Virus record (IMG/VR): IMGVR_UViG_3300029910_000007
Length of the DNA: 64,000 bases
From: a virus
Direction: 5' to 3' (one strand)
In this document: in pieces, positions 375-30,870 of the stretch
How the letters are laid out: the number at the start of each line of letters is the position of its first letter
How positions within the stretch are numbered: the first letter of the stretch is position 1
The notes under the pieces: model-generated
What the model was told of the DNA's origin: nothing
What the model saw: only the letters and a program-made list of their open reading frames with translations
The model's database searches: none
Translations under genes and position numbers: made by a program

Positions 375-463
375 GGTTCAGTTAGCTGGCGGGCGTCAGC
401 ATCGGCCTTGAAAACCGACTATATGCGAAAGTGTATGGGGATCGATACCTCATTGAACCGCCA
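375..463 (+). tRNA. tRNA-Ser (anticodon UGA), class II with long extra arm
   Basis: Acceptor GGTTCAG/TTGAACC, D stem GCTG/CAGC, anticodon loop CTTGAAA (407-413), extra arm closed by GAAA tetraloop (420-435), T arm TGGGG-ATCGATA-CCTCA, G73 + CCA; C31-A39 mismatch. Confidence 0.8.
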
Positions 464-472
464 AACAAATAT

Positions 473-562
473 GTGATACAACCCAAATGGTGCGGGCGCG
501 GACTGTGACTCCGTTATATGCGAAAGCTAGGCTACTTAGTTCGATTCTAAGGTATCACCCCA
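473..562 (+). tRNA. class-II-shaped tRNA with anticodon GUG (isotype uncertain; Tyr-like scaffold)
   Basis: Perfect acceptor GTGATAC/GTATCAC, D stem CCC/GGG, anticodon arm GCGGA-CTGTGAC-TCCGT (498-514), 20-nt extra region (515-534), T arm CTTAG-TTCGATT-CTAAG, C73 + CCA. Confidence 0.6.
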
Positions 563-593
563 ATTTGTTCAAATCTGGATATAACTAAATATT

Positions 594-1406
594 ATGACAA
601 GAGCGTTCGTCAGCATTCTCAATGCTCATTCAATCGGTGACACTATCAATCAGATGTACATCGATCTATTGGTAGAAAAGACATCTGATGATCAATATTG
701 GTTGTTACACACGTCTGATAGTCCATCTGTAAATTCAGGACTCACTGATGGGTGGATTCACTTCGAACTTTTCAACCTCTATCGTAAAGCCGGTCTGTTC
801 AAGAATCTAATTTACATTGACAGACTTAGCAACCGAAATTACAACGAAGGTCATGTTGCAGGAAACTGGATTCACAGAGAGACTTGCAGAAGCTTCATAG
901 CCAAGGTCTACTCAAAGCATTATGATGAAGTGCATCTTGGTATCCCTGTTGAGATTGGATCGACTGTGTACATGCCAGAAGAGCTTAGAGAGAGGTTTTC
1001 TTTTCTGGATAGTGACGAAGAACCATATTCAACCATTCAGTGTCTGAGCACTCACTATAACACTGTAAAGATTCTTCCTAAAATTTACATGGATGCATTC
1101 TTGCATGGTCCACATCAAAAGATAAAGTTTACCGGATCATTGGTAGAGAAGCAGAGAGTTCAGGAACAGATTGATATTTTGAAACTTGACAATCCTGACA
1201 TAGATATGGTAAATTGTTGTGGTGTGAATATTGAAGAATATTTTCGAATCATCTATAATAGTGAGTCAAATCTCTCAACCGAGAGTAGTAGTTCATTATT
1301 GGCTGCTCAGCTTGGCATTCCTTCAATCATCCATTTTGTGTATCGTGCCGAAGTGGACATTTGGAAGAAGAAATTCAAGGATGTTCCTACTTTGACGTTT
1401 GTTTAG
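594..1406 (+). CDS. hypothetical protein, possible GT-B/GT9-like glycosyltransferase paralog
   Basis: 270-aa ORF; N-terminal HSIGD and C-terminal SSSLLAAQLGIPSIIHF resemble the GxGD and DSG..H.A.A.G.P motifs of family-9 glycosyltransferases; similar pattern in ORFs 2818 and 35166. Confidence 0.5.
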   Translation: MTRAFVSILNAHSIGDTINQMYIDLLVEKTSDDQYWLLHTSDSPSVNSGLTDGWIHFELFNLYRKAGLFKNLIYIDRLSNRNYNEGHVAGNWIHRETCRSFIAKVYSKHYDEVHLGIPVEIGSTVYMPEELRERFSFLDSDEEPYSTIQCLSTHYNTVKILPKIYMDAFLHGPHQKIKFTGSLVEKQRVQEQIDILKLDNPDIDMVNCCGVNIEEYFRIIYNSESNLSTESSSSLLAAQLGIPSIIHFVYRAEVDIWKKKFKDVPTLTFV

Positions 1407-1417
1407 AGAGTGATAAA

Positions 1418-1714
1418 ATGAGATTTGTATATTTTATAACACCAGAAGCGATGAATTACGACTGGACAAAATGGAAGAATGAACAAGTAGGAAAAATCTA
1501 TAAATCACAATATGAATTTGCATTCACTTTTTTCAATTATGATGAGAGGAATGTTTCTTACTATATGCAGGGTGTTGAGATGGCAATCCATATCAAATTT
1601 TATGAAAATGCTTCTTATATAGAAGCTTGTAGAGATAAGTGTCAATTGAATTCTTTTTATAAGCGCGGGTATGAAAATACTTCTGGCGCAATAGAAAAAT
1701 TAAAGAAAGTTTAA
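1418..1714 (+). CDS. hypothetical protein
   Basis: ATG at 1418 preceded by GAGAGTGA; the track start at 1361 overlaps the preceding gene. Confidence 0.55.
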   Translation: MRFVYFITPEAMNYDWTKWKNEQVGKIYKSQYEFAFTFFNYDERNVSYYMQGVEMAIHIKFYENASYIEACRDKCQLNSFYKRGYENTSGAIEKLKKV

Positions 1715-1716
1715 AT

Positions 1717-1790
1717 CCCCTCGCTGTTGGATTACAGCCGAAGCCCTACGAAGGCATCTGGTGCAGGTTCGATTCCTGTCGAGGGGTCCA
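1717..1790 (+). tRNA. tRNA-Arg (anticodon ACG)
   Basis: Perfect acceptor CCCCTCG/CGAGGGG, anticodon loop CTACGAA (1746-1752), T arm GCAGG-TTCGATT-CCTGT, T73 + CCA; D loop short. Confidence 0.7.
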
Positions 1791-2062
1791 CTTTAAGTTG
1801 TAGAGAACGGTTGGATGAAGTGTATCGAAAGCGGCTAGGACTCGGCTTCAATGCCGATAGGTCCACCAAAAACATCTTCACTGTCATAGCCCAAGACAGT
1901 TTGCGAGGATTAATGCAATAGAGGATGTTTCTGATGGGCCTAAAAGGATTCGACTGGCAGGTTATTAGAGAAAATGGACAACCCGAGAAGAACTCTCGTT
2001 AAAAAGATCAAGCAAGTAATTGCAGCAGCAAATGATACTTCTTGGGATATGGCACTCGCTGC

Positions 2063-2725
2063 TTAAACCAAGCTGGGATTTGGCAGTTGTTCCTTGTTAT
2101 CCAAACAACTGCGCTTTCTTTTTCTATTATTGAATTTACCAGAACAAGTATTACTACAAAACATTCGTTTTGTTAGATTTGTTTTGAAATTTGAATTACA
2201 TTCTTGGCACACCAATTCTAATATTGGTAGTTTTCTAGTCTTCCAATATATCTCATTTCGCCTTTTACAAACTGCACTTTGTCCCGGTCTTCGTATTCCT
2301 TTTGGTGATGCATTAGTCCAACCAAGTGCAGTATTAGTAGTCATCCATCGTTCGATTACATCTTTTCTAAACATAGGATTATTTTCTTTCATAAATTTTG
2401 AATATTCTGACTTTGCAATAGTGTATACATGAGAAGTTACTTTATATGTTCTATTGTTCCACTTTCTTGGTGGTACCGACATCGCCCACAGTGCCCGATA
2501 CATCTTAGATTTATCACTACCTATTGTCATTTTAACCAAAAGACGATGAAGAATGAAATGGACTCTAGCTGGAATTTTTGTTATATTTTCAGAAGAATTA
2601 TTTCCACCCATACTCTTAGGTAAAATATGATGCTTTTCTCCATATTCAGAGCCGTTAAAATGCTTGATCAAAATGAAATATAGATTAGTGTATTTGTTGT
2701 TTAGAAATTTTGAATAAATATCCAT
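2063..2725 (-). CDS. HNH homing endonuclease
   Basis: GEKHHILPKSMGGNNSSENITKIPARVHFILH HNH motif; C-terminal CQEC..CSNTC zinc-ribbon-like; opposite strand to neighbours and AT-richer. Confidence 0.85.
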   Translation of the reverse strand: MDIYSKFLNNKYTNLYFILIKHFNGSEYGEKHHILPKSMGGNNSSENITKIPARVHFILHRLLVKMTIGSDKSKMYRALWAMSVPPRKWNNRTYKVTSHVYTIAKSEYSKFMKENNPMFRKDVIERWMTTNTALGWTNASPKGIRRPGQSAVCKRRNEIYWKTRKLPILELVCQECNSNFKTNLTKRMFCSNTCSGKFNNRKRKRSCLDNKEQLPNPSLV

Positions 2726-2757
2726 GCTGCTGACCTCCTAAAGAAAGTTAAAGTAGA

Positions 2758-2799
2758 GCACATGGGTCTGAGAAACCGCGATGTGCACCTTTATTTATA
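2758..2799 (-). promoter_or_regulatory. T4-type late promoter plus 5' hairpin of the HNH gene
   Basis: On - strand TATAAATA (2792-2799), then stem GCACAT/ATGTGC (2758-2763/2781-2786), then CTCTAC..CTTTAGGAGG-N7-ATG; same cassette at 4761-4802 and 40770-40810. Confidence 0.55.
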
Positions 2800-2817
2800 G
2801 AAATCGAGTGAATATAA

Positions 2818-3744
2818 ATGTTATTGACTGATCCAGCTGAAATTACACTGATTGAAAACTATAGAAGAAATCTGAGCACTCAGGGAAAGTCTATAACAGT
2901 CGATACAGTCCAAGGCGTAGGAGACCTCGTATGGGTCTATCAGAAGCTTGCACCATACTTCGGTAAGATCAACCTGAACATCCTCGCAGTAGATAACTCA
3001 GAGCTTCAAATGAGAGCCAAGAAGTTCATCGAACTTCTCCCAAAAGTTGGAACAATCAACTACAAAATCACATCTTCTGAACATTACAACAAAGTAGCAT
3101 GGACACACCACAAGATGGGTCCAATTCTTATTGACCCAAATAAAATCCATGAGTATGCTGTCAACAAGCCAATGGAAGAAGGAATGAGAATTGATGCTAT
3201 CGATCCTGATACCCAAGTTGAATGGGACTTGAAGTTCAATGTCCCTGAACCTAGATTTCATGCCGGGAACTACATCGTTCTCTACATCTCAGGATCAAAG
3301 AATAATATGTCATGGGACCACAACAAGTGGGCAAGTTTCATCGTGACCATGTATCGTCGCTACAGACTTCGTGACACACTAGTCCTTTTTGGTGCCAACT
3401 ATGATGCTGCTGTTTTGAGAGCCATCGTTCCAATTCTTGCTAGAGACAAGATACCTATCAAACTACAGATCGATGGGACGCCACAGGACGCAATCAGATG
3501 CATCCGAGACGCACGTCTGTTCATAGGGTATCAGTCTGGAATGAATATCATTGCAGACAACTACAATGTCCCACAGATCATGTTGTATTTTCCATATCTA
3601 AAACCAATGTTAAACACTTGGTGTAAACCCGGTCATGCTGAGCGAAAGATTTTCAACGGATTCACATTTGATCAAACACCAGAAGAAATCTTGACATCCT
3701 GTCAGACCGTGTTAACATCGTTGGTGAATGGAAACAAGTTGTAA
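2818..3744 (+). CDS. putative glycosyltransferase (GT9/heptosyltransferase-like fold)
   Basis: 308 aa; VQGVGDLVWVYQKL near N-terminus and LFIGYQSGMNIIADNYNVPQIMLYF near C-terminus resemble GT9 signature regions. Confidence 0.5.
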   Translation: MLLTDPAEITLIENYRRNLSTQGKSITVDTVQGVGDLVWVYQKLAPYFGKINLNILAVDNSELQMRAKKFIELLPKVGTINYKITSSEHYNKVAWTHHKMGPILIDPNKIHEYAVNKPMEEGMRIDAIDPDTQVEWDLKFNVPEPRFHAGNYIVLYISGSKNNMSWDHNKWASFIVTMYRRYRLRDTLVLFGANYDAAVLRAIVPILARDKIPIKLQIDGTPQDAIRCIRDARLFIGYQSGMNIIADNYNVPQIMLYFPYLKPMLNTWCKPGHAERKIFNGFTFDQTPEEILTSCQTVLTSLVNGNKL

Positions 3745-3753
3745 ATAAAATAT

Positions 3754-3845
3754 GCTCCTGTCTTCTAATGGTAAGAAAGCAGATTTATACCCTGTAAGCC
3801 CCAGATTAGGGCGTAATACGTGTTCAAGTCACGTCGGGAGCACCA
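3754..3845 (+). tRNA. 92-nt tRNA with 22-nt extra arm; 7-nt loop TTTATAC gives anticodon UAU (Ile?), isotype uncertain
   Basis: Acceptor GCTCCTG/CGGGAGC, D arm TTCT-AATGGTA-AGAA, anticodon arm 3779-3795 (A31-C39 mismatch), extra arm GCCC-CAGATTA-GGGC (3798-3812), T arm ACGTG-TTCAAGT-CACGT, A73 + CCA. Confidence 0.6.
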
Positions 3846-3857
3846 AGTTCAAATTAT

Positions 3858-3932
3858 GGTGATATGGCAGAGCGATCATGCACTTCCCTCATAAGGAAGA
3901 TTAGACCAGTTTAACTCTGGTTATCACTACCA
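3858..3932 (+). tRNA. tRNA with CAU anticodon (Met or lysidine-type Ile2)
   Basis: Acceptor GGTGATA/TATCACT, perfect anticodon stem CTTCC/GGAAG with loop CTCATAA (3888-3894), T arm ACCAG-TTTAACT-CTGGT, A73 + CCA. Confidence 0.75.
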
Positions 3933-4729
3933 TATTTGTCATTCCAAATTCTAATATTTTGATTCAATTCTTCAATGGTAATAGAAGATCGACTAAATTT
4001 CTTCATATTTTCTCGTTGGGTCATAAGGGCGCAATTTGCAGGATGTTTCATTATGTTATGTGAAATTTTTAACAGAAATCCATCATAAATTGAAAACTTA
4101 TGATCTCTAGATAATCCATTTTGATTATTTTTTGGATTGAACATTTTACATTCTGAGAGAAGTTTAATATTAAACTCTTTTGGAAAATCACCAATGTTGA
4201 AAGAAAAATTGCATAATTTTCTATACTCGAAGAATATAGAATTGCGACAGGTCATGCACAATTTTGATGATATTGATGTTTTTCTGGCTTCATATTTTTC
4301 ACAATTAACACACTGTTTGAAATAAATTAGACATAAAGTTTTCTCTTTTGTAACTTTAAAATTTGTTGGTGAATCTTTGATGTAGCAAAAATCTCCAACA
4401 ACATTTAAATCTTTATTAACTGCTTTTAATGCAGATACTCTAGATTTTTCTGGATTCGAACAACCTGCTCTATTTTTATAAGTAGCACTACATGAATGTG
4501 AACAAAAATCTTTATTATCATGTCTTTTATCATATGGTATAATACTCTTACATTCAAGACACAATTTTGGATTTTCGTTATACTTTAAAATATTCTTTTG
4601 TTTCTTTGAATGGTTTGCTATACTAAGCACAGTGTAGTCGATTGTACTATGATTGTTAGATGAGTGACCACCAAGAGAGCTTTTATTTTTGGTAGTGAAA
4701 TCGCAATATTTACACTGATAAATAGTCAT
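3911..4729 (-). CDS. HNH-family homing endonuclease with N-terminal C2H2 zinc finger
   Basis: N-terminus YQCKYCDFTTKNKSSLGGHSSNNH; C-terminus LSRDHKFSI...HPANCALMTQRENMKK (HNH-like); 3' end overlaps tRNA 3858-3932 on the other strand. Confidence 0.75.
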   Translation of the reverse strand: MTIYQCKYCDFTTKNKSSLGGHSSNNHSTIDYTVLSIANHSKKQKNILKYNENPKLCLECKSIIPYDKRHDNKDFCSHSCSATYKNRAGCSNPEKSRVSALKAVNKDLNVVGDFCYIKDSPTNFKVTKEKTLCLIYFKQCVNCEKYEARKTSISSKLCMTCRNSIFFEYRKLCNFSFNIGDFPKEFNIKLLSECKMFNPKNNQNGLSRDHKFSIYDGFLLKISHNIMKHPANCALMTQRENMKKFSRSSITIEELNQNIRIWNDKYGSDNQS

Positions 4730-4760
4730 GCTACTAATCTCCTAAAGAAAGTTATGTAGA

Positions 4761-4802
4761 GCTAGTGGTATTGATAGTACGCGACTAGCACCTTTATTTA
4801 TG
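4761..4802 (-). promoter_or_regulatory. late-promoter-like box plus 5' hairpin of the HNH gene
   Basis: On - strand CATAAATA (4795-4802), stem GCTAGT/ACTAGC (4761-4766/4784-4789), CTCTAC..CTTTAGGAG-N7-ATG; the box abuts or overlaps nucleotide 1 of tRNA-Thr. Confidence 0.5.
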
Positions 4803-4875
4803 CTGCTTTAATTTAATGGTAGAATGACGCCTTCGTATAGCGTATGTAAGTGTTCGATTCACTTATGCAGCACCA
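4802..4875 (+). tRNA. tRNA-Thr (anticodon CGU)
   Basis: Acceptor GCTGCTT/ATGCAGC (one T-T mismatch), D arm ATTT-AATGGTA-GAAT, loop TTCGTAT (4832-4838), T arm AAGTG-TTCGATT-CACTT, A73 + CCA; C31-A39 mismatch. Confidence 0.7.
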
Positions 4876-4896
4876 CAAATTTTAGGAAACTATATT

Positions 4897-5123
4897 ATGC
4901 AACCACATGAAGAAAGAGTCTTTGAAGTCAAAGAACTTGATGAGAAGATCATCAATCTGACAAAGTTTGTCCATGGCGCAAACGATGGATGGTTGGAACA
5001 TTGAGTGCAAAATTTCAAGGACTCGATAAAGCAGAGCAAAGTCGCATGATGTCTCAGTTGCATATCATGCGAGCATATTCAACAATTCTTCACGCAAGAA
5101 TCAACGCATTTCCAAAGGATTAA
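4897..5123 (+). pseudogene. small conserved-looking gene split into two overlapping frames (4897-5004 and 4989-5123)
   Basis: Frame A gives MQPHEERVFEVKELDEKIINLTKFVHGANDGWLEH*; frame B gives MVGTLSAKFQGLDKAEQSRMMSQLHIMRAYSTILHARINAFPKD*; together they read like one helical protein. Confidence 0.4.
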
Positions 5124-5129
5124 AATATT

Positions 5130-5348
5130 ATGAGCGAATGTAAAGAAAAGAAGCAGAAGAAAGACGGTCAGGAAGTCTATCGAAACAGAGAATTAATTTT
5201 TGCTCAGTTTCGTGGTGGTAAGTCTCCAGCCAATGATTTGACATGCAAGTTACTCCCTCATCTGACTCACATTTCCTGTACCAAAGAATTTGCATTCAAC
5301 ATGTCTCTGGTCAAGGATGAAAATTTTGAAGTGACTCAGCATGGATGA
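5130..5348 (+). CDS. hypothetical protein
   Basis: 72-aa ORF, co-directional, 8-nt overlap with the next gene. Confidence 0.5.
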   Translation: MSECKEKKQKKDGQEVYRNRELIFAQFRGGKSPANDLTCKLLPHLTHISCTKEFAFNMSLVKDENFEVTQHG

Positions 5349-5778
5349 GATTACTCGATACGTTCTCGGCTTCATGTTCACAGAAGATATGAAGCGAGTC
5401 GTCCTGATCAAGAAGAATAAGCCAGAGTGGCAGAAAGGTCTTCTGAACGGTGTCGGTGGGCATGTTGAAGAATTTGAATTTTCTGAGAATGCAATGATCA
5501 GAGAATTTGAAGAAGAGACAGGTATTAAAACAGTAACTGGTCAATGGTATAATTTTGCACTGATGACTGGAGAGAAGTTTGATGTCGATTGTTATTTTTG
5601 TGTGAGTAATTCTGCTCTCTTTGCAGCGTCTATGACAGAGGAAGAAGTTACGGTTCCATTTGTTAATCATCTGTCAAAGGACCAAATACTATCGAATATA
5701 TCTTGGCTTTTAGGGTTGTGTCTCGACAAGGATATTAAGAGAATTTTCACACATGTTTCATATAGAACGGAAAGTTAA
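5341..5778 (+). CDS. Nudix hydrolase
   Basis: Nudix box GVGGHVEEFEFSENAMIREFEEETGI (G-x5-E-x7-REx2EExG). Confidence 0.85.
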   Translation: MDEITRYVLGFMFTEDMKRVVLIKKNKPEWQKGLLNGVGGHVEEFEFSENAMIREFEEETGIKTVTGQWYNFALMTGEKFDVDCYFCVSNSALFAASMTEEEVTVPFVNHLSKDQILSNISWLLGLCLDKDIKRIFTHVSYRTES

Positions 5779-5854
5779 GCTGAGAGGATCAGCCGCTGCC
5801 TCGAAAACAGTAGGATCATAATAGATAGAGTTTCGAATACTCAATTTTCCGCCA
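5769..5854 (+). tRNA. tRNA-Ser (anticodon CGA), class II
   Basis: Acceptor GGAAAGT/ATTTTCC, D stem GCTG/CAGC, loop CTCGAAA (5800-5806), extra arm 5812-5826, T loop TTCGAAT, G73 + CCA; the first 10 nt overlap the Nudix stop region; C31-A39 mismatch. Confidence 0.65.
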
Positions 5855-5861
5855 AATTTAC

Positions 5862-5937
5862 ACCGCTGTGCCCGGAAAGGATACGGAACATTTTCCTAAA
5901 GTGTTTAATGCTGGTTCGAGTCCAGTCAGCGGTTCCA
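5862..5937 (+). tRNA. tRNA-Arg (anticodon CCU)
   Basis: Perfect acceptor ACCGCTG/CAGCGGT, anticodon arm ACATT-TTCCTAA-AGTGT (5888-5904), T arm GCTGG-TTCGAGT-CCAGT, T73 + CCA. Confidence 0.8.
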
Positions 5938-20909: not shown

Positions 20910-21509
20910 GTGAAGAAGTTCCACGAAGCAGAGAAGAAGAGTGGTCATTTGCCAATGATTTTAAAATTGGACAAATCAGGCTCTCCGTGCGCTTGGTCAA
21001 AGTGGCAAGATATTGTGGTAGCTGAATTCACCGATAAGGTGATCTGGCGTCTGGGTGATCCTATTGACCTCACAGGAGGTACAGGCAAGGATGGAACTAC
21101 CTCACAGTTTGAATTGTATCCAGTTGTTGCAGTAGATGATCAGTCTGCTAGAAAGCGGAAGTGTGCGCCTGCACTGACCAATCGAATTTTGTTCTTGCGT
21201 GATCATCACACATGTGCTTATTGTGGGCATGTCTACATGGCTTCTAGTAAACTTTCTAGGGATCATGTTATTCCAACTTCAAAGGGTGGTCAAAACACTT
21301 GGAACAACTGTGTGACCGCATGCAAGCAATGCAACACTAAAAAGAGTGATCGACTGTTGTCTGAATGTGGTATGGTTTTGAGGTTCAAGCCGTTCACTCT
21401 GAATAATTTCGAGCACTTGATACTTCAAAACAAGCGCATCCTTCCAGTCCAGTTGGACTATTTGATCAAGGGTGTTTCCAAGAACTTTCATTATGAGGAA
21501 ACTGTATGA
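20910..21509 (+). CDS. HNH endonuclease-domain protein
   Basis: CAYCGH...LSRDHVIPTSKGGQNTWNNCVTACKQCNTKK. Confidence 0.8.
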   Translation: MKKFHEAEKKSGHLPMILKLDKSGSPCAWSKWQDIVVAEFTDKVIWRLGDPIDLTGGTGKDGTTSQFELYPVVAVDDQSARKRKCAPALTNRILFLRDHHTCAYCGHVYMASSKLSRDHVIPTSKGGQNTWNNCVTACKQCNTKKSDRLLSECGMVLRFKPFTLNNFEHLILQNKRILPVQLDYLIKGVSKNFHYEETV

Positions 21510-22087
21510 AGAAGAAATTTAAAGTTGGTGATAAAGTCAAGATTGTCAAGAAGTATGGGACTCTCTGGGAACAAATTTGGATGGATAAGACCATCGGTGA
21601 AACTGGAACAATAACCACTACACGAGGACCACGTTTGACATATTATGTCAAATTGAGTCCCGGTCGTGGTTATTACTACGATCCTCGTTCACTCGAACTT
21701 GTTCCAGAAAAATCTCCACAGATTCCTCTACCCATCAAGCGAGAATTTAAGATTGGCGATACCGTCAGAATTTGTCGAATGAGTGGTAAGGTTATATGGT
21801 CTGAAGCAATGAAAGATACTATTGGTGTAGTTGGTGTAGTTGGTGAGATTATTGGAATTAAAAACACCTGCATCCATGTAAGATTTGATAAGTATTATGG
21901 TAATCAAGATAGTTGGTACTATCACACCGACGATCTTGAGCATCCCGAAGAAGTCAAGACAAAGGAAGTATCATTGGTAGAAACAGTCAAGCAATTGAAG
22001 GAAATTATCGAAATCAAGGATAAGATTATTTCTACACTAGAAGATCAAATTAAGCAAGTCAGAGAGATTGTTCAAATCGAGCTTTAA
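21506..22087 (+). CDS. hypothetical protein with two internal repeats and a coiled-coil tail
   Basis: KFKVGDKVKIVKKYGTLWEQIWMDKTIGETG and EFKIGDTVRICRMSGKVIWSEAMKDTIGVVG repeats. Confidence 0.55.
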   Translation: MKKKFKVGDKVKIVKKYGTLWEQIWMDKTIGETGTITTTRGPRLTYYVKLSPGRGYYYDPRSLELVPEKSPQIPLPIKREFKIGDTVRICRMSGKVIWSEAMKDTIGVVGVVGEIIGIKNTCIHVRFDKYYGNQDSWYYHTDDLEHPEEVKTKEVSLVETVKQLKEIIEIKDKIISTLEDQIKQVREIVQIEL

Positions 22088-22089
22088 AT

Positions 22090-22257
22090 ATGGCAAAGAG
22101 AATAGAAATGGATGGTAAGTTCTATAGAATGCGCAGAGGCATTCTTATAGAAATTCCAGAATTGTGGGTAGGTAAAGTAACTCATCCACAAACTATTCGA
22201 AAACGCCCAAGTAAAGATCAACAAGGTATAACACACAAACCGAGTAGAAAATCATGA
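22090..22257 (+). CDS. hypothetical small basic protein
   Basis: 55 aa; ATGA overlap with the release-factor-like gene. Confidence 0.4.
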   Translation: MAKRIEMDGKFYRMRRGILIEIPELWVGKVTHPQTIRKRPSKDQQGITHKPSRKS

Positions 22258-22929
22258 ACAAAATTTTAATTGAAGTCAGAGCAGCCGAGGGCGGAGATGA
22301 TGCCAAGTTATTGGTTAAAGATCAGGCCAAGATTTACCTGAATTATGCCAAGCAGGAGAGTCTTTGACCCTGAGATTCTAGAAGAATCATCAGGCTTTGC
22401 TTCACTAACACTATCAGGAGACTCTAGGAAGCTGTCTAGACTCATGAATGAGTCAGGTGGGCACAGATGGCAACGAATACCCCCTACAGAGCGTAATGGG
22501 CGTGTGCAGACCTCTACAGTAACAGTCTATGTATATCCCTTGGAAATGGAAACCAAGGGATATAAATTTTCCGAGAAAGACCTAGAAATCAGGTATACAA
22601 CAGCCGGTGGTAATGGTGGTCAACATCAGAACAAAACTTTGAGTGCCTGTCATATTCGACATGTTCCGACCGGAATCACAGTCTCTATCAGGACAGAACG
22701 TTCTCAGCCTCAAAATAGACGCCTAGCCTTTGAAATTCTGGAAGCTCGATTGAAGTCCAAGCATGAATCTGAAATTCACTGCGCAGCAAATAATGACAGA
22801 AAACAAAATATTGGTTCTGGTCAACGTGGTGATAAGGTCAAAACCTATTCTGTCAAACACGACATGGTCATTGATCATCTGACTGGAAATAAATTGAAGT
22901 TGAGCAAAGTTTTGAAAGGAATTTTGTAA
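22254..22929 (+). CDS. truncated class-I peptide chain release factor-like protein, two frames joined by a +1 shift at 22362-22368
   Basis: Frame 0 (22254-22364) gives MNKILIEVRAAEGGDDAKLLVKDQAKIYLNYAKQESL then TGA. The +1 frame (22366-22929) gives DPEILEESSG...RIPPTERNGRVQTS...GGNGGQHQNKT (GGQ). Junction AGGAG-AGT-CTT-TGA-C. Confidence 0.7.
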
Positions 22930-22997
22930 GCCGACAAACGGTACTTCTCAAATTTGAAATTTGGTTTATACTGGTCTCATCAAATTAAGGAGAAACT

Positions 22998-23324
22998 TTG
23001 GTGAAAACTTTATATGACCAAGAGTTTTGCTGCACTTCCGATTACTACAAGTATCTTCTGGAAAATTCTGAGGATTATGCTGCATTTCTCAATGATTCCT
23101 ACAAGAGTGGTTTCGATACTGGAAGTAAATGGAATTCTCCTTGGATTCCGGGTGGTCCGTTTGTCCACCAAGCTCGTGCTTATGAGAAAAAAGATGCTCT
23201 GAGCATTGTCTCCAAGGCACAGAATGAATCTTGGATGCGTGGGTGGCACGATGCTGATGGTTCTGCAAAAACTGAAGCTTCTCGTGTTTCTCGGATGGCT
23301 GCTGGACTTCGTGTTCCTTATTAA
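22998..23324 (+). CDS. hypothetical early protein
   Basis: GTG behind AAGGAGAAACTTT; candidate promoter TTCTCA-N16-TATACT about 22946-22973. Confidence 0.55.
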   Translation: MVKTLYDQEFCCTSDYYKYLLENSEDYAAFLNDSYKSGFDTGSKWNSPWIPGGPFVHQARAYEKKDALSIVSKAQNESWMRGWHDADGSAKTEASRVSRMAAGLRVPY

Positions 23325-23476
23325 TTAGGAGAAATTAAGTGAACCAATATATTGCAAATAGTATGACAAAACGTGAGCATTTGTGGAAGTTGACGCTTGC
23401 TTGTTCACACAAGAAGGTCATTCTGACCTATCTTGTTGGTGCTTACTTCGTTACGATCAATCGTTGATAATTTATG

Positions 23477-23505
23477 TTGACAAAATCTGAAGTCTTTAGT
23501 ATCAT
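23477..23505 (+). promoter_or_regulatory. sigma70-type early promoter
   Basis: TTGACA (23477-23482), 17-nt spacer, TATCAT (23500-23505). Confidence 0.6.
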
Positions 23506-27987: not shown

Positions 27988-29061
27988 ATGCAAAAACAAT
28001 ATAAGACAGCCGTTGTAATCGGGAGATTCCAGCCCCACCATCAGGGGCACCTCTCACTCTTCAGAAAAGCAGCCGAACTTGCTGACAACATCGTCATCAT
28101 TGTTGGTTCTTCTTACATTGCTCGAAACATCAAGAACCCATTCACATTTGAAGAGCGTGAAGCCATGCTCTATGAAACTGTCAAGAACATGTTCGAAAAT
28201 GTCTATACCTATGGTGTGACTGACTACATGTATAACGACTCTCAGTGGATTTCTGAGGTTTCCTATAATGTTGATGAAGCAATTTCTGATATTGATGAAA
28301 ACGACCCACACCCTTTGCATGTCAGAACTTTTACCAAAGACGTTGTGATCGTCGGGTATCACAAGGATGCTTCCAGCTGGTATTTGGATAAATTTCCACA
28401 GTATGACTATGTCGAAGCCAATTCTGAACATCCTTTGGATGCCACAACAATTCGTGAACAGTTGTTCACCCTAAAAGATGATGAATATTACGCATGGAAT
28501 GTTCCGAAGCATGTATTTAACTTCTTGATGAAGTTTGTCAAGACGGATGAGTATGTTGCACTGCGTGAGGAATATGAGCAGAACGTAAACTACAAAAAGC
28601 CTTATATCGGGCTTCCTTATCCACCAATTTTCCAGACTGTGGATGCTGTTGTGTTCTGTAAGTCTCATTTCCTTGTCGTAAAGCGTCGTGCGAGTCCCGG
28701 AAAGGGACTTCTAGCCCTTCCGGGAGGTTTCCTGAACGTTGATGAGCGAATCAACAATGGCATCCTTAGAGAGCTTCTGGAAGAGACCAGAATCAAGGTC
28801 CGAGAAGATAAGCTAGTGATTAGGGAAACCAAGACATTTGATCATCCAAATAGGTCTCTTCGTGGTCGAACGATTACCACAACTGGATTGATCATTCTGG
28901 ATGATGAACACGAACTTCCAAAGGTTCGTGGGTCTGATGATGCTGAAAAAGCAAAATGGATTCCAATCAGTAAATTACATACAATGAGTGACAAACTATT
29001 TGAGGATCATTTTTCAATTTTGAACTATTGGGTTCCTATTGCCGAACGTTACGGATTTTAA
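27988..29061 (+). CDS. natV: bifunctional NMN adenylyltransferase / Nudix (ADP-ribose pyrophosphatase-type) protein
   Basis: N-terminal VVIGRFQPHHQGHLSLF (nucleotidyltransferase HxGH); C-terminal Nudix box GGFLNVDERINNGILRELLEETRI. Confidence 0.8.
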   Translation: MQKQYKTAVVIGRFQPHHQGHLSLFRKAAELADNIVIIVGSSYIARNIKNPFTFEEREAMLYETVKNMFENVYTYGVTDYMYNDSQWISEVSYNVDEAISDIDENDPHPLHVRTFTKDVVIVGYHKDASSWYLDKFPQYDYVEANSEHPLDATTIREQLFTLKDDEYYAWNVPKHVFNFLMKFVKTDEYVALREEYEQNVNYKKPYIGLPYPPIFQTVDAVVFCKSHFLVVKRRASPGKGLLALPGGFLNVDERINNGILRELLEETRIKVREDKLVIRETKTFDHPNRSLRGRTITTTGLIILDDEHELPKVRGSDDAEKAKWIPISKLHTMSDKLFEDHFSILNYWVPIAERYGF

Positions 29062-29472: not shown

Positions 29473-30870
29473 ATGACACAGACAAATTTCTTACTGAATA
29501 CAGATAGTTACAAACACAGCCAGTGGCTTCAGTACCCACCCGGAACTGAGTATGTCTATAGCTATATCGAATCTCGTGGTGGAGAATATCCTCATTCTCT
29601 GTTCTTTGGTCTTCAAATGTTCATCAAGAAGTATCTGACCAAGCCGATCACAATTTCAGACATTGTGGAAGCGCAGATTGTGTGCAAGGCCCATGGTGTA
29701 CCATTCAATGGTGATGGATGGATGTACATCCTCAAGGAACATGGTGGTAAGCTTCCTCTTCTCATCAAGGCGGTTCCAGAAGGGTCTGTTCTTCCTGTTG
29801 GACTTCCTTTGGTTACTATTGTCAACACTGACCCAAAGTGTTATTGGCTGACATCATTTGCCGAGACTGCGATTCTTCGTGGTGTTTGGTATCCAACAAC
29901 CGTCGCAACAAAGTCCATGGAAATCCGAAAGGTTATCAAACGTTATCTTGAACAGACTGGTGATGTTTCTGGTCTTGACTTTAAATTGCATGATTTTGGT
30001 GCAAGAGGTGTTTCTTCTGAAGAAAGTGCTGAAGTCGGTGGACTTGCTCATTTGGCAACCGGATTTAAGGGAACTGACACAATGTCTGCTCTTCTTGGTG
30101 CCTACAAATATTATGGTGAAGAAATGGCTGGTTTCAGTATTCCAGCTTCCGAACATAGCACCATCACGTCATGGGGGAAGGAACGAGAGTTTGATGCCTA
30201 TCGAAATATGATCAAATTGTTTGGCGGAGACGGGAAAATTTATGCTTGTGTCTCTGATTCGTTCGATGTTTTCAATGCAACCAGAAACGGGTGGGGTGGT
30301 GTTCTCAAGGATGAAGTGATTGCAGCTGGTGGAACGCTTGTCATTCGTCCAGATTCTGGTGAGATTGTCCCCACAATTTTGAAGCTCGCAAATATTATTG
30401 ATGAAAAGTTTGGCTCTACTATCAATGCCAAAGGCTACAAAGTCTTCAACAACGTTCGTCTGATTCAGGGTGATGGAATTGATGGTCATACCATCGTTGA
30501 TGAGATTCTTTGGGAGTTGAGTGATTGGGGGTTTAGTGCTGATAACATTGCATTTGGTTCTGGTGGTGGAATGCTTCAGAAGCTCAATCGTGACACCATG
30601 AAGTTTGCCATGAAATGTTCTGCAGCCAAGATCAATGGTGAATGGGTTGATGTCTATAAAGACCCTATCACTGATTTAGGAAAGCGTTCCAAGCGCGGTA
30701 GAATCGAGACTGTGAGGATGTGGACCACTGATGGTAAGCTGGTTGTTCACGATCTATCTAAGCCTCTGGAAGGCGGTGATTACATGATGCAGACTGTGTT
30801 TGAAAATGGTCGCCTGTTGGTTGATCAAAGTCTGATGCAGATTCGCTCTCTTGTTGCTTCACAAATCTAA
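29473..30870 (+). CDS. nadV: nicotinamide phosphoribosyltransferase (NAMPT)
   Basis: 465 aa; N-terminal LLNTDSYKHSQW, GARGVSS, SIPASEHS, IRPDSG, LIQGDGI regions typical of NAMPT/NadV. Confidence 0.85.
   Translation: MTQTNFLLNTDSYKHSQWLQYPPGTEYVYSYIESRGGEYPHSLFFGLQMFIKKYLTKPITISDIVEAQIVCKAHGVPFNGDGWMYILKEHGGKLPLLIKAVPEGSVLPVGLPLVTIVNTDPKCYWLTSFAETAILRGVWYPTTVATKSMEIRKVIKRYLEQTGDVSGLDFKLHDFGARGVSSEESAEVGGLAHLATGFKGTDTMSALLGAYKYYGEEMAGFSIPASEHSTITSWGKEREFDAYRNMIKLFGGDGKIYACVSDSFDVFNATRNGWGGVLKDEVIAAGGTLVIRPDSGEIVPTILKLANIIDEKFGSTINAKGYKVFNNVRLIQGDGIDGHTIVDEILWELSDWGFSADNIAFGSGGGMLQKLNRDTMKFAMKCSAAKINGEWVDVYKDPITDLGKRSKRGRIETVRMWTTDGKLVVHDLSKPLEGGDYMMQTVFENGRLLVDQSLMQIRSLVASQI

Follow-up and report, generated by a model that had tools for sequence, protein, structure and literature searches.

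Can a bacteriophage place one of its own translation termination factors behind the kind of programmed frameshift that bacteria use in prfB? The question is raised by a gene at positions 22254–22929 of a 64,000-nucleotide (nt) stretch of viral DNA (IMG/VR record IMGVR_UViG_3300029910_000007; the whole of this stretch is called the window here), which is part of a phage of ~158 kb or more. The gene opens as a class-I release factor (RF), meets a TGA stop early in the coding sequence and continues in the +1 frame. The prfB frameshift is the textbook example of autoregulatory recoding and is regarded as unique to RF2. We consider it very probable that the window gene specifies a single mini release factor of the RF1 type (mini-RF, or mini-RF1) that is made only through a prfB-type programmed +1 frameshift. 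A prfB-type frameshift in a domain-1-less, RF1-like phage factor represents a real and apparently undescribed recoding system.

An earlier note on this DNA had placed a prfB-like shift signal within a phage mini release factor, and all of its coordinates prove exact on inspection of the sequence and translation of the open reading frames (ORFs; Table 1). The upstream segment, ORF0, is translated as MNKILIEVRAAEGGDDAKLLVKDQAKIYLNYAKQESL, and its ATG shares bases with the stop codon of the preceding ORF in the sequence ATGA (22254–22257). The architecture that had been proposed for the junction is present in full, with an internal Shine-Dalgarno (SD) sequence, a 3-nt spacer and CUU UGA C. The +1 frame is already open ahead of the junction and stays so until the TAA at 22927–22929 and, read from the GAC at 22366, ORF1 gives DPEILEESSG...RIPPTERNGRVQTS...GGNGGQHQNKT. 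If T22365 is skipped, the joined product is 224 amino acids (aa) long with the junction ...AKQESL-DPEILEE..., and the tryptic peptide spanning this predicted junction is QESLDPEILEESSGFASLTLSGDSR. The motif GGAG-N3-CTTTGA is found once in the 64 kb against an expectation of 0.15, and at least once in 14 of 100 shuffled sequences, so by itself it is only mildly unlikely. It is nonetheless more than a chance occurrence, because it coincides with the point at which the frame changes in a protein whose alignment to RF1 is unbroken there, and because it recurs in ~30 diverged orthologues. The 121 window genes predicted under code 11 (coding density 0.92) end with TAA (53), TGA (52) or TAG (16), and 39 of them are preceded by an SD sequence compared with a background of 7%; since the code is standard and window genes use SD sequences, both the premature stop and the SD stimulator should work in the host.

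From profile matches and a modelled fold we identify the joined product as a predicted RF1-type class-I release factor composed of domains 2–4. The Pfam domain PCRF (PF03462) matches residues 2–91, spanning the junction, with 70.9 bits (cutoff 24), and RF-1 (PF00472) matches residues 103–208 with 88.8 bits (cutoff 35; 3.1e-25). The NCBIfam RF1 model aligns in one stretch to residues 3–223 with 200–202 bits, but the alignment begins at model position 105 of 347 and ends at position 330; domain 1 is therefore absent, as had been suggested. The scores are lower for the NCBIfam models of RF2 (126 bits) and PrfH (TIGR03072; 81.5 bits against a cutoff of 166.65). The protein does fail the full-length RF1 equivalog test (NCBIfam prfA/PRK00591), in which its 200–202 bits compare with cutoffs of 400–423, and because these cutoffs are missed and only positions 105–330 are covered we regard it as an RF1-like paralogue and not as a canonical RF1. 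An ArfB/ICT1 rescue factor was considered and rejected, as the ArfB model gives 30 bits (cutoff 100) over residues 102–135 only and the PCRF domain is present. PrfH was likewise rejected, with its model score under the cutoff and no RtcB among the ten neighbouring ORFs scanned (18.5–29 kb). The best sequence match in the PDB is RF1 (1RQ0/2FVO; E 5e-40, a single stretch of residues 2–222), which we take to be the Thermotoga maritima protein although the search output names the molecule only, and RF1 of other bacteria is also among the best matches; here the Leu37/Asp38 junction aligns to the RF1 segment ...AERKGW/NLEV..., the slash marking the junction.

The modelled structure leads to the same assignment. 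An AlphaFold2 model built from an alignment of 68 intact homologues has a mean predicted local distance difference test score (pLDDT) of 93.4 and a predicted template-modelling score (pTM) of 0.80, and residues 31–40 around the junction reach a pLDDT of 98. In this model the junction falls between a helix (residues 15–34) and a strand (residues 38–45), and ORF0 supplies a strand (residues 2–10) and the helix of residues 15–34 (pLDDT 95–98), corresponding to strand 1 and helix alpha5 of RF domain 2; its GGDDA tip aligns with the GGxEA element of RF1 that contacts U1 of the stop codon. Foldseek superposes the model on ribosome-bound RF1 structures (T. thermophilus, E. coli, 70S) with a template-modelling (TM) score of 0.90 and a root-mean-square deviation of 2.0–2.2 Å, compared with TM scores of 0.80–0.87 for RF2 and 0.67 for PrfH. 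The joined protein thus scores as a class-I RF by Pfam, NCBIfam, PDB match, AlphaFold2 model and Foldseek alike, and the preference for RF1 over RF2 expressed in the earlier note is borne out, and extends to PrfH, both by the profile scores (200, 126 and 81 bits) and by the fold. In the decoding loop PPT aligns to the PVT/PAT of RF1, giving the PxT of RF1 and not the SPF of RF2, and Q73 is at the WQR position. The loop is kept across the family whatever stop occupies the recoding site and, with its PxT and its Gln and Thr determinants, it predicts specificity for UAA and UAG. UGA is a codon of RF2, outside the range of RF1-type factors.

Relatives were gathered by family-alignment scans of IMG/VR, JGI metagenomes and GTDB genomes and by contig look-ups, with 373 matches in all in IMG/VR and more than 589 in the metagenomes. 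We tabulated 25 distinct frameshifted junctions, and there are five additional cases (L055, L114, L176, L255 and LR745208.1); all of the frameshifted orthologues shift in the +1 direction. At every one of the 25 junctions the codon CTT is followed by a T-initial stop (CTTTGAC, 10; CTTTAGC, 7; CTTTGAG, 6; CTTTAGT, 1; CTTTAAC, 1), whereas elsewhere in the same genes only 15.6% of the Leu codons are CTT. The upstream consensus is C-GGAGG-GGT. In 19–20 of the 25 the SD is matched over 4 nt or more, and the spacer measures 3 nt at 15 junctions and 4 nt at four; the SD is absent from the readthrough-type relatives described below. The frameshifted loci range in G+C content (GC) from 0.35 to 0.71 and their proteins are mostly 53–59% identical in pairwise comparisons. 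Diverged relatives do keep an AGGAG-like SD and the CTT-stop motif, a check that the earlier note had proposed. ORF0 is under coding constraint, with many synonymous differences between frameshifted orthologues (for example, 10 synonymous and 4 nonsynonymous differences between L069 and L094), and residues E7, E12, G13 and G14 are invariant in the family alignments. The cassette is situated ~10 codons further downstream in one subclade (L001, 3001–3655; L176, 2501–3152), in which the N-terminus is EIRPGEGG and the junction ...ENRGSL/DLIIEG. It is also present in the 485-kb uncultured huge phage LR745208.1 as CGGAGGGGTCTTTGACC (L256, 61974–65622, reverse complement; the record is unannotated), which presumably belongs to the huge-phage set of Al-Shayeb and colleagues; the record was found beside LR7565xx records and does not itself give this attribution.

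For the window gene itself, the concern that CTTTGAC might be a misread CTTGAC is met by separate assemblies, all of which keep CTTTGAC: the same 676 nt are found without change in four (ENA, JGI and two Logan runs), and the C-terminal product (P0001) is on 22 contigs. The samples rich in the window phage are ERZ27250257, IMG 3300029882, SRR8556064 and SRR8554092. Judged from these comparisons, the conservation is of the kind that marks a recoding cassette under selection, and it is highly likely that the +1 frameshift is programmed. A megablast search of positions 21500–23500 against 50,697 phage records gave no match, and tblastn of the protein against the same records returned only uncultured huge phages and host-contaminated records. 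In the GTDB genome scan the mini-RF is on only two contigs of metagenome-assembled genomes (L176 and L255) among the best 80 of at least 595 confirmed matches, the rest being cellular RF1, and cellular genomes are essentially devoid of the family.

The frameshifted genes are one of three states in which the family occurs, an unexpected wider pattern that the earlier note did not include, just as it did not include the use of TAG or TAA at the shift site. In ~80 distinct relatives there is an in-frame stop, nearly always TGA and mostly in the context GG(C/T)-TGA-(A/G/C), at the codon where the window gene shifts; these genes were reported as uninterrupted by tblastn and are distributed across loci L015–L119 (e.g. 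L028, 2497–3190; L032; L106). A second group has its in-frame TGA ~10 codons later (L015–L019, L023, L024 and L036), matching the cassette position in L001 and L176, of whose subclade these are the sister genes. There are two in-frame stops in two genes (L038 and L084), and in LR756504.1 (636 kb, GC 0.27) the in-frame TGA is at yet another position (...KPIE-stop-RDGF...).

We examined the genetic code of these phages by gene density and by the count of TGG versus TGA within genes; stop-to-stop ORF coverage and one-stop ORF pairs were discarded as measures because of GC effects. The 80 distinct in-frame-stop genes contain 170 ordinary TGG codons and the special codon is TGA (80) or TAG (2), all other Trp codons being TGG; seven of the 80 terminate with TGA. 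A greedy gene-density comparison shows that under code 11 the gene density and gene number of the in-frame-stop phages equal those of the window. Genome-wide use of code 4 is rejected on these three counts: gene density and number like those of the window under code 11, TGG usage, and TGA terminators. Selenocysteine was considered as an explanation and rejected, and transcriptional slippage was rejected with only three T's available. A gene-specific in-frame TGA in standard-code phages implies, at the level of sequence comparison, programmed UGA readthrough. A search of the DNA within 2.5 kb of 60 in-frame-TGA genes for a suppressor tRNA with a tca anticodon was negative.

Among the best 80 IMG/VR loci, 67 have an in-frame stop, eight a frameshift and five are intact, and the corresponding numbers for 36 metagenomic mini-RF loci are 20, 15 and one, although these proportions are biased by sampling. 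UGA is the stop in ~100 of the ~115 interrupted genes, and premature-stop recoding is the rule in the mini-RF family. The protein database also contains numerous intact members, in which Leu, Phe or Tyr occupies the site, and the intact genes read GGT-TTT-GAG or GGT-CTC-GAA there, a single insertion away from GGT-CTT-TGA-G. Rough average-linkage identity clustering of 217 sequences, together with nearest-neighbour identities, scatters the frameshifted genes among the intact ones, with several closer to an intact relative than to a frameshifted one; this scatter suggests that the frameshift state may have been gained or lost repeatedly. In public annotation, protein P0113 (L175, 418–1131) looks intact with a Trp, its gene call having read the in-frame TGA by code 4, and other gene calls cut the mini-RF to 160–212 aa because they begin at an ATG that is internal or in another frame (P0001, P0094 and P0101). 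For annotation in general, gene callers split or truncate mini-RF genes, or silently render TGA as Trp under code 4.

By analogy with prfB, a ribosome translating ORF0 of the window gene would arrive with peptidyl-tRNA-Leu on CUU (22362–22364) in the P site and UGA (22365–22367) in the A site. The AGGAG 3 nt upstream would pair with the anti-SD of 16S rRNA and stimulate the shift, and UGA followed by C would provide a slow termination context. The tRNA-Leu would then slip from CUU to UUU (22363–22365) and decoding would restart at GAC (22366–22368). Slippage would compete with RF2 at the UGA; where RF2 acts first only the 37-residue peptide would be released, so the yield of full-length protein should rise as host RF2 termination at UGA slows. 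Most likely the circuit in the window phage would act as a cross-sensor of host RF2/UGA termination capacity and not as strict self-feedback, a preference we hold because the decoding loop is RF1-type and is unchanged with the stop codon used. That RF2-sensing, which the earlier note suggested, is the actual purpose of the frameshift we put at an even chance. The relatives with CUU-UAG could be cases of true RF1-type autoregulation. Mora et al. (2003) reportedly found that RF1 and RF2 without domain 1 keep codon-dependent release in vitro and are not recycled by RF3, and on that basis the product would be an RF3-independent terminator.

Several observations weigh against this account. The frameshifting itself is deduced from the sequence. 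The SD is weak or absent in L095, L113, L122, L174 and L055, and because such orthologues exist it is not obligatory. An RF1-type factor controlled through UGA would lack the self-feedback that explains prfB. Nor is the family, in which all three stops occur while the decoding loop stays the same, what either RF2-sensing alone or autoregulation alone would lead one to expect. The GTDB genome scan, whose matches are mostly betaproteobacterial cellular RF1, gives no firm host assignment.

Two alternatives, both unlikely in our view and to the same degree, accept the recoding and differ on what it is for. In the first, the mini-RF reads its own premature stop, UGA included, through a broadened or omnipotent loop (the invariant PPTE-[KR][RK]-GR), and the circuit is autoregulatory in the manner of prfB and the Mimivirus factor. 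Both of these precedents are self-regulatory, TGA, TAG and TAA all occur at the recoding site with no co-variation of the loop, and the loop differs from that of cellular RF1 (PATESQGR) by a Pro and two basic residues. However, the protein has determinants of the RF1 type, in the Thr of PxT and the counterparts of Gln181 and Thr194, which in established RF1 structures exclude G at the second stop-codon position. Profile hidden Markov model scores and fold are also nearer to RF1 than to RF2, and the predominance of UGA is what would be expected if an RF1-type product were supposed to leave the site unread. In the second, the frameshift is real and non-regulatory, serving as a fixed-ratio attenuator, by which a small and unvarying share of initiations at most would yield a potentially toxic factor. 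In bacteria, release factors become toxic when over-expressed (PMC12421855); some orthologues have no SD, and the plain in-frame UGA of many relatives would give only low expression. A weak ribosome-binding site would do the same, and yet the premature stop has been gained or kept at two codons and by two recoding modes; in addition, the site is always a stop codon and never a rare sense codon, which points to termination efficiency as the sensed variable.

It is very improbable that this is a split gene in which the ORFs are translated separately, the second from an ATG at 22345 in the +1 frame, with non-covalent assembly of the parts or function of the 194-aa C-terminal part alone. That ATG and the N-truncated annotations mentioned above are compatible with such an arrangement, but the ATG has no SD, and since orthologues such as L012 have no +1-frame start codon near the junction there is no conserved restart; the break would also fall inside the compact domain 2, between the helix and the strand noted above, and the N-terminal 37 residues bear the conserved GG(D/E)(D/E)A helix tip. 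Least probable of all is that the extra T arose by misreading or misassembly of a homopolymer, or by a recent mutation that inactivated the gene, for although the break is in a short T run (CTTTG) and the four matching assemblies are 100% identical and from the same strain, and so are not fully independent samples, a three-base run is not a typical error site, both ORFs are conserved, and the same +1 break with the invariant CTT-T-stop and SD and no other disruptions in ~30 diverged orthologues effectively refutes this explanation.

Returning to the preferred reading, a prfB-type shift that reports on host termination, we offer tentatively, and at slightly less than an even chance, an extension to the family as a whole. 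The mini-RF1 genes may be a hotspot of convergent recoding in which a stop within the first ~50 codons, at two or more alternative codons, is passed by +1 frameshifting or UGA readthrough and senses host termination capacity, such that the factor would be deployed, together with tRNAs and transfer-messenger RNA (tmRNA), only when host RF2/RF1 activity falls.

The genomic surroundings of the gene are rich in translation functions. In relatives, the mini-RF is situated in arrays of up to 17 tRNAs, several of them with tRNA-Trp(cca), and a permuted tmRNA is within 2 kb of it in L076, L085, L116 and L146; both kinds of RNA gene are also present in the window (Table 1). A PTH2 gene (PF01981) is directly upstream of the mini-RF, or overlaps it, in some of the readthrough-type relatives (L175, 69–449; L052, 1732–2109; L070, 1345–1725). 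The earlier note had also suspected a PTH2-like gene in the window; this did not hold up, as tblastn with a phage PTH2 query was negative there, and PTH2 adjoins the mini-RF in some relatives only. As tRNA arrays, permuted tmRNA and PTH2 adjoin the mini-RF in relatives, it forms part of a phage translation and ribosome-rescue module. The ten ORFs neighbouring the window gene (18.5–29 kb) include HNH, phosphoesterase, NMNAT-NUDIX and similar genes, with an HNH endonuclease just upstream of the mini-RF. Two genes upstream is a 193-aa ORF (21506–22087, + strand) that apparently consists of two copies of a ~70-residue domain (KVGDKVKIV... and KIGDTVRIC...), and its PHROG matches are of no known function.

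Table 1. Coordinates of the mini release factor gene, its recoding elements and other features of the window
Feature	Position	Strand	Remarks
ORF0, codons 1–37 of the mini release factor	22254–22364	+	ATG at 22254; zero-frame stop TGA at 22365–22367
AGGAG, internal Shine-Dalgarno-like element, putative 5' frameshift stimulator	22354–22358	+	
AGT, 3-nt spacer	22359–22361	+	E-site codon with CUU in the P site
CTT TGA C, shift heptamer	22362–22368	+	Leu codon CTT at 22362–22364; C at 22368
TGA, premature zero-frame stop	22365–22367	+	
ORF1 (+1 frame), residues 38–224 and TAA (22927–22929)	22366–22929	+	Rest of domain 2, GGQ domain 3, domain 4
CCC CCT ACA, P76-P77-T78, RF1-type PxT 'tripeptide anticodon'	22480–22488	+	Within GGHRWQRIPPTERNGRVQTS
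GGT GGT CAA, G121-G122-Q123, catalytic GGQ	22615–22623	+	Invariant in family alignments
Six tRNAs: Ser-tga, Arg-acg, Ile-tat, Met-cat, Thr-cgt, Arg-cct	375–5937	+	ARAGORN; four at Rfam gathering score
Permuted (two-piece) tmRNA	1809–2066	+	Rfam RF04321, 82.7 bits; ARAGORN 1777–2157, tag AAANDTSWDMALAA
PAPS-reductase-like gene	13874–15091		
NMN adenylyltransferase-NUDIX, bifunctional	27988–29061	+	NAD+ salvage pair
Nicotinamide phosphoribosyltransferase	29473–30870	+	NAD+ salvage pair

Among cellular proteins the mini-RF resembles PrfH, which is paired with RtcB2, in having no domain 1 and in its length of ~200–230 aa. It differs in keeping the RF1-type PxT loop and in its fold, which is much closer to RF1 than to PrfH, and we know of no requirement for recoding in PrfH. 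Phage release factors have been described before, in reports on huge and recoded phages that carry RF1 or RF2 genes beside tRNAs and tmRNA as ordinary ORFs tied to a genome-wide change of code (10.1101/2021.08.26.457843; PMC7162821). The factors of Borges et al. and Al-Shayeb et al. are like the mini-RF in being phage-carried and located alongside tRNAs and tmRNA, but the window phage and the relatives with in-frame TGA use the standard code, and no recoding of an RF gene is described in either report (10.1101/2021.08.26.457843; PMC7162821). A review of RF evolution does not mention phage forms. Recoding in the mini-RF family is not described in the full-text literature searched, although most subscription journals were outside the reach of that search and an earlier description is possible.

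The closest viral parallel is in Mimivirus and Megavirus, where the mRNA for a class-I RF contains internal stops that are passed by a combination of frameshifting and readthrough, which Jeudy et al. (2012) read as prfB-like regulation (PMC3521657). Like the mini-RF this is a virus-encoded termination factor with internal stops in its mRNA, although it is of the eRF1 type with the archaeo-eukaryotic fold and serves in a eukaryotic host, whereas the mini-RF is of the bacterial RF1 type and is found in phages. The giant-virus gene also combines frameshifting with readthrough, whereas each mini-RF gene uses one of them, rarely with two in-frame stops (L038 and L084).

The closest parallel in mechanism is prfB itself. 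The E. coli cassette is AGGGGG-UAU-CUU-UGA-C, with the same spacing as in the window (PMC5009743), and both genes have an internal SD, a 3-nt spacer, a CUU in the P site and UGA followed by C, early in a class-I RF gene and with a short zero-frame product that is non-functional (PMC12421855, PMC5009743). There are also differences. prfB encodes RF2, whereas the mini-RF is of the RF1 type and should not read its own UGA, so that cross-regulation and not self-regulation would be expected. In prfB the shift takes place at codon 26, within domain 1, whereas the mini-RF site is at codon 37/38 in domain 2 of a protein with no domain 1; unlike prfB, the mini-RF is phage-borne and its family has the cassette at two alternative codons. 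The mini-RF orthologues also use UAG (eight) and UAA (one), and UAG has never been seen in prfB (PMC12421855). A 2025 survey of 12,753 genomes found the programmed frameshift in prfB and none in prfA, and TAG did not occur in the motif of prfB (PMC12421855). In their 2016 review, Atkins and colleagues record no RF2 gene in which the ORF carries on in the same frame past an early in-frame UGA, and treat a UAG/RF1 counterpart as unknown in bacteria, the giant virus of amoebae being the sole mention of a related case (PMC5009743).

Set against these systems, the mini-RF family raises the question of why a virus should couple a domain-1-less RF1-type terminator to the efficiency of UGA termination, and its dozens of natural cassette variants, which differ in stop codon, +4 base, SD strength, spacer and position, make up a comparative data set for recoding research. 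If the proposed recoding is correct, these would be the first RF1-type genes with UAG-based autoregulatory frameshifting, and the first examples of an RF gene with an early in-frame UGA, an arrangement proposed before the prfB sequence was known and never found. The family would thus supply three configurations missing from the known systems: a frameshifted RF1-type gene, UAG within the shift motif, and an early in-frame UGA in an RF gene.

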